DNA of 64,000 nt from an uncultured delta proteobacterium (GTDB lineage Bacteria; Desulfobacterota; Zymogenia; Zymogenales; Zymogenaceae), in assembly GCA_963792965.1 (NCBI GenBank), contig CAWBYW010000007.1, forward strand, positions 96,001 to 160,000. The letters run 5' to 3'. Below the pieces are notes generated by a model. The model made no database searches and had not been told where the DNA came from. It saw nothing but the letters and a program-made list of their open reading frames with translations. Every line of letters starts with the position of its first letter. Position 1 is the first letter of the stretch. A program made the position numbers and the translations under genes. Positions 40,052 to 50,743 of this stretch are shown piece by piece.

Positions 40052-40720
40052 TTGATGAACCCAGTAGAACGTCCTGACATGGAAAACGTCATTGCCCTGC
40101 GGATTGAAGCGGAAAAACAAGAACGGATTGAGCGAATCCTGAACGCAGCACTGAAGCTCTTTCTGGAAAAAGGGTATCTCGGCGCTACTATGCGCGACAT
40201 CGCTCTTGAAGCCGAGCTTTCCACCGGGGCCATCTACGTCTATTTCTCCGGGAAAGACGAGATTTACGAAAAAGTCTGTGAAGAGGCGTTCCTGGTCGTT
40301 ATCGGTCTTATCAAGGAGGCGGCCTCGATAGGGGGCGCACCAAAAGATCGCATACGGGCAATCGCTCACCAATATGTTACCTTCTATACCGACTATGCCG
40401 AGTATTTCGAAATGCTCACGTTCCATGATCTCGGTTTTACTAAACGCGGTCAATCGGAACATCTCAGAGAACGGCTCAAGGATTTGACCGCGCAGGCCGT
40501 GAGTATCATCGAAGCCGTCGTCGTGGACGGAGTAGCCACCGGGGATTTTTCATCAGACCTCGACAGCACCCAGGCAAGTTTCAACCTTTGGGCGGGATTG
40601 GAGGGTGTTCTCATCCTCGATATGATGGGGTATCTCAAGAGCTTTAATCTGGATCTGGAAAAGGTCGTACTGTCTCAGCTGGAAATATTGCTCACGGGCG
40701 TCATTGCAAGAGCCCGGTAA
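40052..40720 (+). CDS. TetR/AcrR family transcriptional regulator
   Basis: RILNAALKLFLEKGY.GATMRDIA.EAELSTGAIYVYFSGKDEI; start could be the ATG at 40079. Confidence 0.95.
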   Translation: MMNPVERPDMENVIALRIEAEKQERIERILNAALKLFLEKGYLGATMRDIALEAELSTGAIYVYFSGKDEIYEKVCEEAFLVVIGLIKEAASIGGAPKDRIRAIAHQYVTFYTDYAEYFEMLTFHDLGFTKRGQSEHLRERLKDLTAQAVSIIEAVVVDGVATGDFSSDLDSTQASFNLWAGLEGVLILDMMGYLKSFNLDLEKVVLSQLEILLTGVIARAR

Positions 40721-40834
40721 TAAAACAACGCTTCGTCGCGAAGAGCAAACGAAGCGAAAGACGATGATAACAGATCATTATCGGATCGTTTGAAACAGGC
40801 CTTCATATAAAATAAGTAGTATGAGGAGATGACT

Positions 40835-42115
40835 ATGGGCGCCCAACTTACCAAGGATCAGCTGAATGAGATAAAGAAACAAGCGCTGGATGACTATTCC
40901 CGGTATGTCAATCCCCAGAAAGCACGGGTATTAAAGAACGCCGGGCTTGACATTATCGAGGGTAAGCGGGAGGGAGCGGCGGTATGGGATATCACGGGTA
41001 AGAAGTACATCGACTGTATCACGTCGGCCGGATCGTTCAATGTCGGGAGAAGGAACCCCGAGATCATTGCCGCCTTGAAGCAGGCGCTTGACGAATACGA
41101 TCTGGGCGTCTTTCTCCTCTGCAGCAAGCCCAAGGCGGACCTGGCCAAAAGGCTCGCGGAGATCACCCCGGGCGACCTCCAGTACGTCATGTACGGGTCG
41201 GGAGGCGGAGAAGCCAACGACTTCGCCATCAAGCTCGCCCGCGGGTACACGATGAAGAATGAAGTCATCTCAACGATCAAAGCATATCACGGCCATACCG
41301 GATTTTCACTTGCCGCCATCGGTCGGGAGGAATACAGAAAGCCATTCGGCGCGATGGTCCCGGGGTACAAACACGTCCCCTATAACAACCTCTCCGCAAT
41401 GGAAGAGGCGATCACCGAGGATACCGCCTGCGTGATCATTGAGCCGGTTCAGGGGGAGGGGGGCATCTACCCCGCCTCGGACGACTACATGAAGGGGCTC
41501 AGAAAGATTTGCGACGACCACGAAGTACTCCTCATCTTCGACGAGATCCAGACGGGATTCGGACGCACGGGCAAGATGTTCTGTTGCGAATATTCGGGCG
41601 TCGTCCCGGACATCATGACCGTGGCCAAATCGCTGGGCGGCTCCATCTACCCGATATCGGCCACGATATACCGCGGGGAGCTCGGGGACTTCGTGATGAC
41701 GCACGCCTTCACCCACCTGTCCACGTTCGGGGGCTCGGACCTCGGGTGTATCGTGGGGCTTGCCGTTATCGACTATATCACGAAGCACAAGCTGCCCGAG
41801 CACGCGGCAAAGATGGGCGAGCGCTTCCAGAAAGGGTTCGACGAGCTGTTAAAGAAGTATCCCGAGCTGCTCACGGAGGTCCGACGCAAGGGCCTCATGA
41901 TGGGCCTCCAGTATACCAACGACAGCATCGGGCCGCGGATGAGCTATCAGCTGGCCCAGAACGGCGTTATGGCGATCTATACGGGGAACGAGCCGTCGGT
42001 CATGCGCATCATGCCCTCGCTCGTCATAGAGCCCGACGAGGTCGATTTCGTAATCGAGGCCATCGATACGTCGATGGCCGAGATCATGAAACAGGGCGGC
42101 ATAGAGAAATATTAA
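40835..42115 (+). CDS. Class III PLP aminotransferase, paralog 1
   Basis: [59 protein letters not shown] favours the ATG at 40835. Confidence 0.95.
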
Positions 42116-42132
42116 GTCACAGGAGGTTTTTT

Positions 42133-42492
42133 ATGGCGACAGCGGACGAAATCTGGGAGGCCCTTGCCGACTTTACCGAGCAGTGTAACAGTAACAAACG
42201 GCTCAGGAAGATGCAAAGGGATTGGACGAAGGTTATGCACTTTAAGGCCTCGGATACGGGAGACTCCTTTACTATGAAGGTCGTCGAAGGCGAGATCGTC
42301 AAGAATGATCGGGGATCGATCGGGACTCCCGACATCATCGTCGAGACGGAGAGTGAGACGATGTGTGATATGTTCTGGGGAGATATCAATCCCACGCAGA
42401 AGTATCTCCGGGGCGAGATCAAGGTCAAGGGAACCCAGGAGGACGTCATGCGCATCGATGTCATCTCCGCGGTCATCTGGCCGGAGGTGTAG
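42133..42492 (+). CDS. SCP2 sterol/lipid-carrier domain protein
   Basis: AGGAGG RBS; PDIIVETESETMCDMFWGDINPTQKYLRGEIKVKG is a typical SCP2 C-terminal pattern. Confidence 0.85.
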   Translation: MATADEIWEALADFTEQCNSNKRLRKMQRDWTKVMHFKASDTGDSFTMKVVEGEIVKNDRGSIGTPDIIVETESETMCDMFWGDINPTQKYLRGEIKVKGTQEDVMRIDVISAVIWPEV

Positions 42493-48157: not shown

Positions 48158-48253
48158 CCTCTCGCTCGCAGGTAAGGTCAGTGGCGAGCGGAGCAAGGCG
48201 GTTTCGTCTATTCTTCTGATGGGCCTATCATCGGAAAGGAGAAAGGAACGGGT

Positions 48254-49611
48254 ATGAGCCAACTCAAACGGGTGGTGAAGCTCAGGACGGTGGTAGCCAC
48301 GAGCGCCGGCATGGCAATGGCAACCTCCTGTTATACGGCCGGGGTCAAGGTTGCCATGTTGGTCGCGGGCAACTCCGCGTGGATATCCATCGCCGTCGCG
48401 GGTTTCATGTGCATCCTGTCGGCCATGTGCTTTTCAGAGCTCAACGGGATGTACCCGTCCGCCGCGGGCATTCGGCTCTTCATCGAGCGAGCCTTCGGCG
48501 AGAAGGCGGCCATCTCTATCGGGGCCTTCTACCTCGGCTGCGCAATCGCGATGGTGGGGCCGGAAACGCACATCCTCAGCAGTGTCATCGGCACGATCGC
48601 TCCGGGCGTTCATCCTTTCGTGTGGGTAGTGGTCTTTTTGGGCTTGATCGCCCTCATCAATCTGAGGGGGGTCAAGGTCGCCGGGTGGGCCGAGGATATC
48701 ATGACCTATGTCATGCTCACCTTCATGGTATTCGTGGGCATCTACGCGATCGGTAAGTTCGGGGTTTCATCCAAAGAGCTCTTCAACACCGGCGGGGTGA
48801 CCAACGTCTTTCAGGCGGCGGCGGTCGGCGTATTCCTCTTCGTCGGATTCGAGTGGGTGACACCGCTGGCGGAGGAAGTGCTTGACAGCAAGATGATCGC
48901 CAAAGGGATGATGTGGGCCATCGGGCTGTTATGCCTCACCTACGTCTTGTTCATTACGGGGATGACCGCCGTGGTCCCCAAGGAGACACTTGCGGTGTCG
49001 GCAATCCCGCACATCATCGTGGGGAACGCCCTGTTCGGGAAGGCCGGCATCTATATGTTCGTCGTGATGAGCTGCCTGGCCTCGCTGACCTCGTACAACG
49101 CGGGATTTTTGAATTTTTCGCGCTTCATGTACGCCATGGGACGGGATAACGTGCTGCCGCGGATATTCTCACGCATCAGCGACCGGTACGCCACGCCGTG
49201 GTTTGCGGTCCTCTTTGCTTTTCAGTGTCGCTTCTGATATCGCTCTACATCCACCTCACGGGTAAATACATGACACTGATTATGGTGGCGGCGGCTATTG
49301 AGGTTATTATCTATACGGTGATGGCGCTGTCGGTGATAAAGCTCCGTTTCTCGCTCAAAGACGCCCGAAGACCCTATCGGGTCCCAGGCGGGTTGGTTAT
49401 CCCGATCGTTGCGATCGTCTTTTTCCTGATACTGCTGGTGGGCATCTATTCGGAAGATATTACGGTCCTGTTCATCATGGCCGGGGTTTTTATCGTTTGC
49501 CTCCTCTATACCCTTGTGGTGCCCCCGCGCCTGAGGGCCGCCTATGAAAAAAGGATGTCCGAGCGGGTTCCGCGGAGAAGGAGACCGGGAGGGCCGGAGT
49601 CGGGAAAATAG
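48254..49611 (+). CDS. APC family amino acid/amine permease, paralog 2, frameshifted near 49220
   Basis: FSELNGMYPSAAG, FVGFEWVTPLAEE, SRFMYAMGRD, TPWFA; continues as SVSLLISL...LRFSLKDARRPYRVPGG...ERVPRRRR. Confidence 0.9.
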
Positions 49612-49644
49612 CGTAGTATTGAATCGCGATATAAGGAGTGAAAG

Positions 49645-50743
49645 ATGAAAATCGGAGTTCCTAAGGAGATAAAGGCCGAGGAGAATCGGGTGGCGATCAC
49701 CCCCGCGGGCGTATCCGCGCTGACCAGCCACGGCCATACGGTCTTCGTGGAAAAAGGGGCCGGCCTCGGCAGCGGGATAACGGACCAGGAATATATTGCC
49801 GCGGGGGCTCAGAGCCTTCCGACGAAGGAGGACGTTTGGAAACAGGCCGAGATGATCATCAAGGTAAAGGAGCCGCTCGGCCCGGAATTTGACCTGATCC
49901 GGGACCATATCCTCTTCACCTATTTCCACCTGGCGGCGGATATCGAGCTGACCAAAAAACTTCTGGCGACCAATGTTAAGGCCGTCGCCTACGAAACGAT
50001 CCAGCTTGCCGACGGGTCGCTGCCGCTGCTGGCCCCGATGAGTGAGGTCGCGGGACGGCTCTCGATCCAAATGGGCGCGCGCTGTCTCGAGTCGATCGGG
50101 GGAGGGAAGGGGATCCTCCTGTCGGGTGTCTCGGGAGTGCCGCCGGCAAAGGTGGTGGTCCTCGGTGCCGGGATCGCCGGCTCCAACGCCTGTTACGTGG
50201 CCGTGGGCATGGGGGCGAGGGTAAGCATCCTGGATATCAATCCCGCAAAGCTGCGCTACATCCACGACGTCATGGGAGGCCACGTCGTGACCGTCATGTC
50301 GAACCTCGCCAATATCGAAGAAGAGGTATTGTCGGCCGACCTCGTCGTCGGGACGATCCTCATTCCCGGCGCAAAGGCCACAAAGCTGGTCACTCGGGAG
50401 ATGATAAAGAAGATGAAGAGAGGCTCGGCCATCGTGGACATCTCGGTGGACCAGGGCGGGTGCGTGGAGACCACTCACCCGACGACGCATAAAGATCCGA
50501 CGTATATCGTCGACGGCGTTGTCCACTACGCGGTGGCAAACATGCCGGGGGCGGTTCCGCGCACCTCGACCTTTGCGCTGACAAACTCGACGCTCTCCTA
50601 TGCCCTCGATATCGCCAATAAGGGACTGGACCGCGCAATTGCGCGAGAGCCCGTCCTTGAAGAAAGGGGTCAATATCCTGAATAAGAAACTGACGTACAA
50701 GGCGGTCGCCGAGGCCTTCAACATGAGCTGGGTGGAGATTTAG
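49645..50743 (+). CDS. ald: Alanine dehydrogenase, frameshifted near 50650
   Basis: [50 protein letters not shown]; continues in the +1 frame as [21 protein letters not shown] to TAG at 50743. Confidence 0.96.

Follow-up and report, generated by a model that had tools for sequence, protein, structure and literature searches.

A conserved operon of Ca. Zymogenaceae combines aminotransferases, SCP2-fold proteins and an atypical split transketolase and may serve the catabolism of lipophilic amino-alcohols

A row of ten co-oriented genes, found in uncultured fermenting bacteria of the family Ca. Zymogenaceae, is a conserved arrangement and not the product of chance, since its order from AT1 to Ald is repeated in seven of nine other genomes of the family. 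We propose, with a probability of about 0.5, that this operon functions in lipophilic amino-alcohol catabolism by transamination, alanine/pyruvate cycling and ThDP-dependent C-C cleavage. An imported fatty amine-type compound would probably be deaminated and its chain then cut by an unusual transketolase aided by lipid carriers. The operon is most likely TetR-controlled, with an amphiphilic or lipophilic primary amine as its substrate, a long-chain amino-alcohol being favoured; that sphingoid bases are the specific substrate is doubtful. The literature searched contains no description of such a pathway and the proposed route, if true, would be new. The window, the whole stretch of 64,000 nucleotides that was analysed, contains the following features.

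39912..39932, both strands: terminator-like hairpin, 9-pair stem then T run (pattern match only)
40000..40028, +: promoter-like site before TetR, 10/12 hexamer matches, 17-nt spacer (pattern match only)
40052..40720, +: TetR, 222 aa; TetR_N 57.3 bits and TetR C-terminal domains
40829..42115, +: AT1, PatA/PigE-type class-III aminotransferase, 428 aa; Aminotran_3 320.7 bits
42133..42492, +: SCP2s, small SCP2-fold protein, 119 aa; SCP2 27.9 bits (cut-off 21.3)
42494..43780, +: AT2, second PatA/PigE-type class-III aminotransferase, 428 aa; Aminotran_3 318 bits
43865..45508, +: APC1, APC-superfamily permease; AA_permease_2 124.8 bits
45484..46326, +: TK-N, split transketolase, ThDP-binding half, 280 aa; Transketolase_N 144.7 bits
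46344..47364, +: TK-C, split transketolase, pyrimidine-binding and C-terminal half; Transket_pyr 143.7 bits, Transketolase_C 86.8 bits
47381..48157, +: SCP2d, tandem double-SCP2 protein, 258 aa; SCP2 25 bits at residues 161-245 (C-terminal half)
48254..49611, +: APC2, second APC permease; AA_permease_2 109.6 bits over its first part
49645..50743, +: Ald, alanine dehydrogenase; TIGR00518 472 bits (cut-off 391.85), model positions 1-339 of 370
50751..50779, +: promoter-like site before the next unit (MoxR), 11/12 hexamer matches (pattern match only)
55431..57335, +: aldehyde:ferredoxin oxidoreductase; AFOR_N 245.5 bits, AFOR_C 392.3 bits

The terminator-like hairpin, which would close the unit upstream of TetR, together with the promoter-like sites 5' of TetR and 3' of Ald, suggests that TetR to Ald form a single transcription unit, separate from the one that would start from the site at 50751..50779. 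All ten genes claimed in the original prediction are present on the plus strand, and its claim that the cluster holds no kinase, isomerase or sugar dehydrogenase is borne out, since the intergenic gaps from TetR to Ald (40052-50743, +) are at most about 180 bp and none can be hidden there. Gene calls and family profiles across 40052-50743 likewise reveal no aldehyde-oxidising gene and no aminoaldehyde dehydrogenase or GABA-type step, and TetR reached no NCBIfam equivalog cut-off in the profile search. The predicted gene set stood, with corrections to some reading frames. The APC1 open reading frame is over-long, reading past a probable natural end near 45300 to 45508; a 477-aa orthologue aligns with 43862-45238, and comparison with the structure database returned only remote solved relatives (best 60.6 bits). 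In addition, TK-C (47195-47225), APC2 (near 49220) and Ald (near 50664) carry one frameshift each, all at short homopolymers, and the last ~25 residues of Ald read on in another frame 3' of the homopolymer. We read these frameshifts as assembly errors and not gene decay, because a relative, L024, has intact orthologues of TK-C (339 aa), APC2 (460 aa) and Ald (365 aa) and because different genes of the row are broken in other few-contig assemblies of the family.

The gene order is common to five genera (g1-g5), the window's own and four more of the family. The two family genomes in which the full order was not recovered consist of short contigs with the TK-to-Ald part present. SCP2d follows TK-C within 400 bp, and Ald is present, in all seven family loci. 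A TetR orthologue precedes the row in five of the seven family loci whose upstream DNA was covered and was not found in the examined DNA of both genus g5 genomes, which make up the other two.

Gene neighbourhoods outside the family show that the row is a composite of two modules. Module A, a PatA/PigE-like aminotransferase with a small SCP2 protein and an APC permease, occurs in other families without transketolase. There, AT1 orthologues (61-68% identity) start the module, and its neighbours are amidohydrolases, a carboxylesterase, an alpha/beta hydrolase, an SDR or an acyl-CoA ligase; no transketolase lies in the examined DNA around seven such loci. SCP2d is absent genome-wide from four of five module-A genomes of other families (97-100% complete), and a common substrate is thus not required of the row's two halves. 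Module B, consisting of TK-N, TK-C and the double-SCP2 protein, is found across many phyla. Among 73 loci outside the family, SCP2d lies no more than 400 bp 3' of TK-C in 66, a FumI-type class-III aminotransferase (best solved relative FumI, 332 bits versus 160 for the next) is present in 40 and Ald in 8, and PatA-like aminotransferases, SCP2s and APC permeases were found within 10 kb in none. TetR and Ald adjoin module B in Desulfatibacillum and Desulfosudis loci. All-against-all clustering of the neighbours yielded no further conserved partner, no transporter in the widespread five-gene module and no conserved acyl-reductase or lipid-assembly gene near it. Ald and TetR, which had been put forward as pathway partners, thus both recur beside the module outside the family. 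The predicted co-occurrence of SCP2, aminotransferase and transketolase genes holds for module B, through its double-SCP2 protein and FumI-type aminotransferases, but does not extend, outside the family, to the window's own kind of aminotransferase, SCP2 and APC set, which occurs there without transketolase.

TK-N and TK-C resemble the two chains of the split transketolase of Carboxydothermus hydrogenoformans (265 bits with 6yak and 250 bits with 6yaj, respectively; PMC7661550), with which they have the catalytic histidines and cofactor glutamate in common. In E. coli numbering, H26, H66, H100, D183, H261, E411, H461 and H473 are invariant among the 29 aligned clade members, and S385 and R520 are also kept in the clade. 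Other positions of the pocket are remodelled. The D469 position is Ala in all 72 SCP2d-linked genes; among the 29 aligned members the E468 position is neutral in every one, the G262 and L466 positions are invariably Tyr and Phe, and the R91 position is Asn in 28. The R358 position across the 72 genes is Ala in 51, Arg in 13, Thr in 3, Lys in 1, Ser in 1 and uncovered in 3. In contrast, the controls (human, Carboxydothermus, and one full-length and one second split transketolase from the same loci) have Glu-Asp at 468/469, and in printed alignments the Carboxydothermus enzyme has Arg at both R91 and R358, where the window's clade has Asn and mostly Ala. The Tyr after H261, the Phe at L466, a conserved acidic tail and the double-SCP2 neighbour further set the clade apart from it.

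Judging by these alignments, the clade appears to be without the residues that read sugar hydroxyls and phosphate and to retain the catalytic ones. This pattern supports the earlier interpretation, which nevertheless has to accommodate S385, H461 and R520; these contribute to sugar phosphate binding too and are retained, as is R358 in 13 genes. Phosphorylated partners may thus be compatible with the pocket, and an aldose-phosphate acceptor would need these residues. According to the consulted part of PMC5073344, D469T in engineered E. coli transketolase breaks the salt bridge with R91 and makes room for non-polar aldehydes, and in the engineered variants (D469T, R520Q, S385Y) it is the replacement of D469 that admits aliphatic and aromatic acceptors. 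The clade carries a natural equivalent of this engineered D469 change, although it keeps S385 and R520 and alters R91, E468, G262 and L466.

The proposed lipid carriers differ in how firmly they can be modelled. SCP2d is confidently predicted to be a double SCP2 fold resembling lipid- and alkyl-binding domains: its AF2 model (pLDDT 92.4) has two tandem repeated SCP2-like halves, and its Foldseek matches are the alkylsulfatase SCP2 domain (E 1e-5), archaeal and human SCP2, and UbiJ. The gene for SCP2s sits between those for AT1 and AT2; 59 of its 119 columns are invariant among 11 orthologues from several families, and AF2 models it, with moderate confidence (pLDDT 66.5), in an alpha/beta order like that of SCP2.

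AT1 and AT2, which are about 57% identical, are both PatA/PigE-like and not FumI-like. AT1 scores 369.5 bits with the putrescine aminotransferase family model, below its 612 cut-off, and has E. coli putrescine aminotransferase as its best solved relative (294.6 bits). AT2 scores 398.8 bits with the same model and 348.8 bits with that of PigE (cut-off 850). Among solved structures it matches E. coli putrescine aminotransferase with 316.8 bits and PigE with 259.6 bits, and its 60 best matches do not include FumI. Identity of AT1 and AT2 to the FumI-like aminotransferase is 22-25%. PatA/YgjG of E. coli and the PigE domain of prodigiosin synthesis are thus the best family and structure matches, but the scores fall well under both curated cut-offs. 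PatA and PigE act on a terminal amine/aldehyde pair, in the case of PigE that of a lipophilic keto-aldehyde, and a dedicated SCP2 partner and Ald coupling are not known to be features of these systems. In anaerobes, taurine:pyruvate aminotransferase works with alanine dehydrogenase, which recycles the pyruvate and releases ammonium. The operon would resemble this pair in coupling an amine:pyruvate transaminase to Ald, and would differ in aminotransferase subfamily, substrate and downstream chemistry.

FumI, the aminopentol aminotransferase of fumonisin catabolism in Sphingopyxis sp. MTA144 (PDB 6hbs), provides the parallel for module B elsewhere. In the portion of PMC3136697 consulted, it is the aminotransferase of a sphinganine-like 2-amino-3-ol lipid, deaminated at C2 to a 2-keto-3-hydroxy lipid; pyruvate is the preferred amino acceptor, consistent with an adjacent Ald; the reaction that follows FumI is not covered there, and transketolase, SCP2 protein and Ald are not mentioned. 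The resemblance lies in the FumI-like aminotransferases beside the transketolase clade, whereas the window's own AT1 and AT2 belong to another subfamily.

In the route that we favor, a compound imported by the APC permeases would be passed by the small SCP2 protein to both PatA/PigE-type aminotransferases, AT1 and AT2 would move its amino group or groups onto pyruvate, and Ald would restore the pyruvate, giving off ammonium and NADH. The double-SCP2 protein would then offer the alpha-hydroxy-carbonyl lipid to the atypical split transketolase, where ThDP-driven C2-C3 cleavage would hand the two-carbon ketol unit over to an aldose. The fatty aldehyde left behind may be oxidised by the downstream aldehyde:ferredoxin oxidoreductase. 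We infer each of these chemical steps, as well as the lipid nature of the substrate, the direction, and that one substrate links the two modules; the grounds for breakdown rather than synthesis are the permeases, TetR and Ald. Gene content, the tie to SCP2 and the pocket all agree with the transaminase, transketolase and SCP2 route first predicted, but the FumI-like character of the aminotransferases elsewhere does not carry over to the window's own. As for the sphingoid-base substrate, FumI-type aminotransferases beside the transketolase elsewhere are in keeping with it, but nothing singles out a sphingoid base. The accompanying caveat on C3 stereochemistry stands: natural D-erythro sphingoid bases would give a 3R ketol, and the 3S form is the one cleaved by canonical transketolase.

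Some observations run against our main reading. AT1 and AT2 are closest to putrescine aminotransferase, an enzyme for a polar diamine, and a mono-amine substrate does not explain two aminotransferases. The usual cargo of APC permeases is polar amines and amino acids, which we count against a lipophilic substrate.

The row could instead be two unrelated modules under a common promoter in this family, with TetR, AT1, SCP2s, AT2, APC and Ald deaminating an imported amine and TK-N, TK-C and SCP2d handling another lipid-like ketol. The seven module A loci of other families without transketolase, the four module-A genomes without SCP2d and the lack of PatA-like aminotransferase, SCP2s and APC at all 73 outside loci speak for such an arrangement. 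We consider it unlikely, however, because the fused row is conserved gene by gene in the five genera and the second permease and Ald are kept 3' of the transketolase genes throughout. Moreover, an aminotransferase and Ald regularly accompany module B elsewhere, making an aminotransferase partner the norm for the transketolase clade, and in Ca. Zymogenaceae the FumI-like aminotransferase has moved to another locus. There is a slight chance that the operon represents ordinary polyamine catabolism of the putrescine/cadaverine type alongside a housekeeping split transketolase, with the SCP2 proteins incidental. Putrescine aminotransferase is the best match of AT1 and AT2, APC permeases include polyamine carriers, and G000 (88.9% complete) revealed no full-length transketolase, which makes a housekeeping role possible for that genome alone; yet G004, a relative that is 99% complete, also encodes a canonical transketolase of full length. 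AT1 and AT2 also fall far short of the putrescine aminotransferase cut-off, the unit lacks the aminoaldehyde dehydrogenase or GABA-type step, the highly conserved SCP2s keeps its place between the two aminotransferase genes, and the transketolase clade, without D469, E468 and R91, is tied to SCP2d in many phyla.

The same enzymes could also run in the biosynthetic direction. The transketolase would extend a fatty aldehyde by a C2 ketol unit, and an aminotransferase, using alanine from Ald, would convert the 1,3-dihydroxy-2-ketone to a 2-amino-1,3-diol lipid, bypassing serine palmitoyltransferase. In favour of this, both enzyme classes catalyse reversible reactions, the presence of two aminotransferases could reflect an aldehyde and a ketone as substrates, the operon contains no aldehyde-oxidising gene, and the widespread five-gene module contains no transporter. 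Synthesis is nonetheless improbable given the two permeases inside the unit, the TetR-type repressor at its head, the TetR and Ald that adjoin the module in Desulfatibacillum and Desulfosudis too, and the want of a conserved acyl-reductase or lipid-assembly gene nearby; FumI, the characterised enzyme closest to the wider module's aminotransferase, is catabolic in the consulted account.

Breakdown of a lipophilic amino-alcohol, the reading that we prefer, would produce an aldehyde for which the aldehyde:ferredoxin oxidoreductase is a possible sink. Its gene lies 4.7 kb downstream of the operon, co-oriented, and the order MoxR-VWA-HGD-D x2-AOR is kept in all seven family loci, a synteny within one family only. 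A second locus in the window's genome encodes an SCP2-E1alpha/beta fusion, a crotonase, an SCP2d paralogue, a FumI-like aminotransferase (358 bits with FumI) and a V4R protein, and follows a logic like that of the operon.

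The gene row at 40052-50743 is most economically read as a catabolic unit for an amphiphilic amine, and we put the chance that it degrades a lipophilic amino-alcohol by way of its transketolase at about one half. The original prediction had placed ten co-oriented genes here, with no kinase, isomerase or sugar dehydrogenase among them, and Pfam and NCBIfam assignments of the row genes bear out both points. All components are of known families, and the transketolase is transketolase-like in its working yet non-standard.

Genes of the row, in order, assigned with Pfam and NCBIfam
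40052-50743, +: ten genes in one orientation, with short intergenic gaps
Row member, +: TetR regulator
Row member, +: AT1, class-III aminotransferase
Row member, +: SCP2s, SCP2 protein of 119 aa (Pfam, 27.9 bits against a cut-off of 21.3)
Row member, +: AT2, second class-III aminotransferase
Row member, +: APC1, APC permease
Row members, +: TK-N and TK-C, halves of a split transketolase
Row member, +: SCP2d, 258 aa, the second half matching SCP2 (Pfam, 25.0 bits against 21.3)
Row member, +: APC2, second APC permease
Row member, +: Ald, alanine dehydrogenase (TIGR00518, 472 bits against a cut-off of 391.85)

Across TK-N and TK-C the domains Transketolase_N, Transket_pyr and Transketolase_C were found at 144.7, 143.7 and 86.8 bits, and among solved structures the split Carboxydothermus transketolase comes closest (265 bits for TK-N to 6yak, 250 bits for TK-C to 6yaj). 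Two chains, three domains and likeness to the solved split enzyme thus mark the pair as a split transketolase. The pocket of the clade to which it belongs was compared with the E. coli enzyme position by position.

Pocket residues in the clade alignment (n = 29), in E. coli numbering from the K-12 tktA record
H26, H66, H100, D183, H261, E411, H461, H473: kept in 29/29 (catalytic and cofactor residues)
D381, L382, S385, R520: kept in 29/29
R91: Asn in 28/29
G262: Tyr in 29/29
L466: Phe in 29/29
E468: Gln, Thr, Ser, Pro or Ala in 29/29
D469: Ala in 29/29

By this conservation the clade is catalytically complete, and a hydroxymethyl-ketone donor, whose C1 hydroxyl is bound by H100 and H473, is probably still handled. 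D469, which reads the hydroxyl beside the aldehyde group of sugar acceptors, is Ala in all 72 SCP2d-linked TK-C genes aligned with tblastn; at the R358 site the same 72 genes have Ala in 51, Arg in 13, Thr in 3 and Lys and Ser in 1 each, with 3 uncovered. Glu-Asp at 468/469 is kept in the controls, namely the human and Carboxydothermus enzymes (from printed alignments), in a full-length transketolase at locus L021 and in a second split one at L046. The phosphate binders S385, H461 and R520 are retained in 29/29, and the clade lacks the full set for canonical sugar recognition (D469/R91, R358, S385, H461, R520). Judged by these recognition residues, it lies within the transketolase fold and superfamily and is not a canonical sugar-phosphate transketolase; its predicted pocket has lost three or four charges and gained aromatic side chains. 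In engineered E. coli transketolase, D469T disrupts the salt bridge with R91, so that non-polar aldehydes find room (PMC5073344).

The C-terminus of TK-C (about 47330-47361; alignment A3) carries a conserved acidic tail with one tryptophan, of which seven positions (within 330-338 of the first sequence) are invariant in the 29 sequences, and SCP2d has several invariant basic residues; from these two features a docking motif between the proteins is conceivable. The window's own genome also holds a second split transketolase on contig C13 (L133:4412-8115), 53% identical to TK-C, with Asn-Gly at E468/D469. Its neighbours are a Zn-alcohol dehydrogenase, an SDR and what appears, from a label read off the sequence, to be a broken glycyl-radical enzyme. 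It may be another non-canonical transketolase.

The label of a double-SCP2-like protein given to SCP2d in the original prediction was upheld by its predicted structure. An AlphaFold model built from 25 relatives (pLDDT 92.4) shows two repeated alpha/beta halves, and Foldseek matched it to SCP2 domains of alkylsulfatases, archaeal and human SCP2 and UbiJ (E 1e-5 to 1e-3). Both SCP2s and SCP2d pass the SCP2 family model (PF02036, cut-off 21.3), the structural model of SCP2s being only moderate, and the fold suggests that both may bind lipid. No solved relative of SCP2s was found by sequence. In the ESM Atlas SCP2d fell into SCP2-named or unnamed clusters only, and no fused form of SCP2d scored among longer proteins, which is weak evidence; at locus L085 a 515-aa open frame joins SCP2d to its paralogue, and this may be an assembly error.

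The row combines two modules, one consisting of an aminotransferase, SCP2s and an APC permease (module A) and the other of TK-N, TK-C and SCP2d (module B). The latter is far more widespread than the row: a scan for SCP2d relatives with one genome per prokaryote species returned 391 loci, and the best 80 of these, 7 from Candidatus Zymogenaceae and 73 from outside the family, were analysed. Within the best 80 of 391, the 73 outside loci have TK-C no more than 400 bp upstream of SCP2d in 66 cases, a class-III aminotransferase resembling GSA aminomutase in 40, an SCP2d paralogue in 35 and Ald at >45% identity in 8, and none has a PatA-like (putrescine-type) aminotransferase, SCP2s or an APC permease within 10 kb. 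TK-N is also visible in 56 of the 66 TK-C-linked loci, and 9 of the other 10 are cut by a contig end. Contig ends likewise cut three or four of the 7 loci without TK-C; at three Planctomycetota loci with full flanks TK-C is genuinely absent. The hosts of module B span Hydrogenedentota, Syntrophomonadaceae, Desulfobacterales, Nitrospiraceae, Myxococcota, Planctomycetota, Spirochaetales and a Bathyarchaeia bin, and include the cultured Desulfatibacillum alkenivorans DSM 16219 (by its locus), with proteins of D. aliphaticivorans also matching. All-against-all clustering of neighbouring ORFs yielded Ald (10 loci) and a probable TetR (6 loci) as recurrent extra partners and no conserved partner beyond these two, the other clusters being antisense shadow ORFs; by Pfam, TetR and Ald both stand beside module B in the Desulfatibacillum and Desulfosudis loci.

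The aminotransferase of this wider module differs from those of the row. It scores 332 bits with FumI (6hbs), the aminotransferase of the fumonisin pathway, and 160 with the next-best solved relative, which makes it FumI-type. FumI takes the C2 amino group off hydrolysed fumonisin, which is a sphinganine-like lipid; the enzyme's preferred acceptor is pyruvate, and it showed no activity with 2-oxoglutarate (PMC3136697). The recurrence of Ald fits this preference for pyruvate. AT1 and AT2, on the other hand, score best among solved structures with the E. coli putrescine aminotransferase (294.6 and 316.8 bits, respectively), and PigE, from the prodigiosin pathway, is also near; 6hbs is absent from the 14 matches of AT1 with E <=1e-60 and from the best 60 of 171 matches of AT2, so that neither is FumI-type by its closest solved relative. 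Both also fall short of the curated putrescine aminotransferase equivalogs, with 369.5 (AT1) and 398.8 bits (AT2) against 612 for NF008570, and 304.1 and 330 against 658.65 for TIGR03372.

On contig C5 of the same genome (L022:6154-13009) lies a second locus, whose 880-aa fusion protein joins an SCP2 domain at the N-terminus to E1-alpha and E1-beta of a ThDP dehydrogenase of the pyruvate/acetoin type. Genes for a crotonase, an SCP2d paralogue, a FumI-like aminotransferase (358 bits to 6hbs) and a V4R-domain protein follow. Among the 8 family genomes with such a fusion, 6 have it within about 4 kb of an SCP2d paralogue. This locus repeats the pattern of aminotransferase, SCP2 protein and ThDP-dependent C-C enzyme, and thereby strengthens the logic proposed for the row.

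Module A also exists by itself. A search with SCP2s matched 18 of 301 genomes of the phylum, including the window's own genome and 8 family members, and orthologues at 61-73% identity occur in 8 genomes of other families. In the seven fetched contexts the SCP2s gene follows an AT1-like gene or, in L128, an AT2-like one; in five contexts the next gene encodes an APC permease, and TetR is present in L122 and L125, Ald in L125. Neither transketolase nor SCP2d was found in the fetched DNA of these seven loci outside the family, and SCP2d occurs anywhere in the genome in only 1 of 5 module A genomes of other families (97-100% complete). The neighbours there are amidohydrolases, a carboxylesterase, an alpha/beta hydrolase, an SDR and an acyl-CoA ligase. 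At two transketolase-free loci (L124:5428-7077 and L125:11659-13293) a type-B carboxylesterase and Amidohydro_3 amidohydrolases flank module A, and these may release the amine from an ester or amide conjugate.

Within Candidatus Zymogenaceae, a group characterized as fermentative anaerobes (bioRxiv 10.1101/2021.03.22.436540), the row is well conserved. The SCP2d query matched all 9 other family genomes and none of 31 genomes representing 31 other families of the phylum. The order AT1-SCP2s-AT2-APC-TKN-TKC-SCP2d-APC-Ald-MoxR is complete in 7 of the 9, with TetR upstream in 5 of these 7, and the remaining 2 have short contigs bearing the part from transketolase to Ald; the assembly under study is itself 88.9% complete in 42 contigs. 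Genus g5 loci (L015:5467-7477 and L026) have three tandem V4R-domain genes of 206-209 aa each between APC1 and TK-N and one further V4R gene ahead of Ald, V4R being a small-ligand-binding domain by its Pfam description. After Ald, at 50814-57335 and in the same orientation, lie genes for a MoxR ATPase, a VWA protein, two HGD-D (2-hydroxyacyl-CoA dehydratase-like) proteins and an aldehyde:ferredoxin oxidoreductase, in an order kept in all 7 family loci. Elsewhere in the window, adjacent genes at 27964-30894 encode two CoA-transferase subunits and a beta-keto acid cleavage enzyme (BKACE), an arrangement like that of lysine-fermentation-type pathways, and a B12-binding radical SAM gene lies at 25735-27618.

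We envision a scenario in which an amphiphilic amine would enter through the APC permeases and be passed by SCP2s to the aminotransferases, which would transfer its amino group to pyruvate, with Ald regenerating the pyruvate. The atypical transketolase, served by SCP2d, would then split the resulting alpha-hydroxy-ketone lipid in a ThDP-dependent reaction and release a fatty aldehyde; the aldehyde:ferredoxin oxidoreductase, syntenic with the row, could act as its sink. In a more specific form, transamination at C2 with pyruvate would turn a sphingoid base into a lipid 'ketose', to be cleaved into a fatty aldehyde and a C2 unit destined for the pentose-phosphate pool. We regard sphingoid bases as a rather unlikely substrate class, and it is at best a tentative proposal that the transketolase clade linked to SCP2d and to FumI- or PatA-type aminotransferases cleaves lipids in anaerobes of many phyla, with sphingoid bases or 2-amino-1,3-diol or 2-amino-3-ol lipids as substrate.

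Several observations count against a single substrate shared by the whole row. Module A is found elsewhere without transketolase, AT1 and AT2 resemble by sequence enzymes acting on terminal amines, and a mono-amine does not explain why there are two aminotransferases. The phosphate site of the transketolase is partly kept, although an aldose-phosphate acceptor would need the kept part too. Stereochemistry bears on the choice of lipid as well. Canonical transketolase cleaves 3S ketols; by our own reasoning the ketol from natural D-erythro sphingoid bases would be 3R, whereas 3S cleavage would suit threo amino-alcohols, among them the fumonisin backbone. The clade, with its altered pocket, may differ from canonical transketolase in this preference. 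Phytosphingosine was considered as an answer and rejected, since by priority rules its 2-keto product would also be non-canonical at C3. A route from ethanolamine through glycolaldehyde was likewise set aside, as it leaves both the SCP2 proteins and the loss of D469 unexplained. Were the substrate an ordinary polar amine, the outcome would be more modest, a new transketolase subfamily whose pocket is unusual.

The known route for sphingoid bases requires a kinase and a phosphate lyase, and neither lipid kinase nor PLP-dependent S1P lyase domains were found by Pfam and NCBIfam among the genes of 40052-50743. To our knowledge, the anoxic breakdown of sphingoid bases or long-chain amino-alcohols has not been worked out. 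Literature searches that took in sphingoid and sphinganine catabolism, Desulfatibacillum and split transketolases found no paper describing a natural pathway of aminotransferase, transketolase and SCP2, and the main text of the Zymogenia preprint mentions neither transketolase nor aminotransferase; its supplementary tables could list them. If the sphingoid-base proposal is correct, the sphingolipid backbone would be broken down in anoxic habitats without a kinase, S1P lyase or oxygen. The row and the five-gene module behind it would add a transketolase clade that nature has remodelled much as engineers remodelled the E. coli enzyme for non-polar aldehydes, dedicated SCP2 carriers for soluble lipid-acting enzymes, and a natural transaminase-transketolase cascade ready for chiral amino-diols. 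This module is present in cultured strains, so that direct testing is possible.

Pattern matching identified a terminator-like hairpin and a promoter-like site 5' of TetR and a near-consensus promoter-like site 3' of Ald, and a search for operators returned only an 8-nt inverted repeat in the gap between TetR and AT1. An Rfam scan of 38000-58000 gave no riboswitch match. No RNA run is among the sequencing runs containing the stretch, which are three DNA runs with small shares of the sampled words (0.05-0.07). APC1 has remote solved relatives only. TK-C (47195-47225), APC2 (about 49220) and Ald (about 50664) carry one frameshift apiece, each at a short homopolymer. The last displaces some 25 C-terminal residues of Ald, which passes the equivalog cut-off and has both AlaDh/PNT domains, identifying it as an alanine dehydrogenase. 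Orthologues of all three genes are unbroken in a relative, and in few-contig family assemblies (loci L023, L025 and L093) homopolymer frameshifts strike other genes of the same row; on these grounds we read the three as assembly errors. Such frameshifts look like an artefact of long-read assembly that is liable to mislead automatic pseudogene calls.
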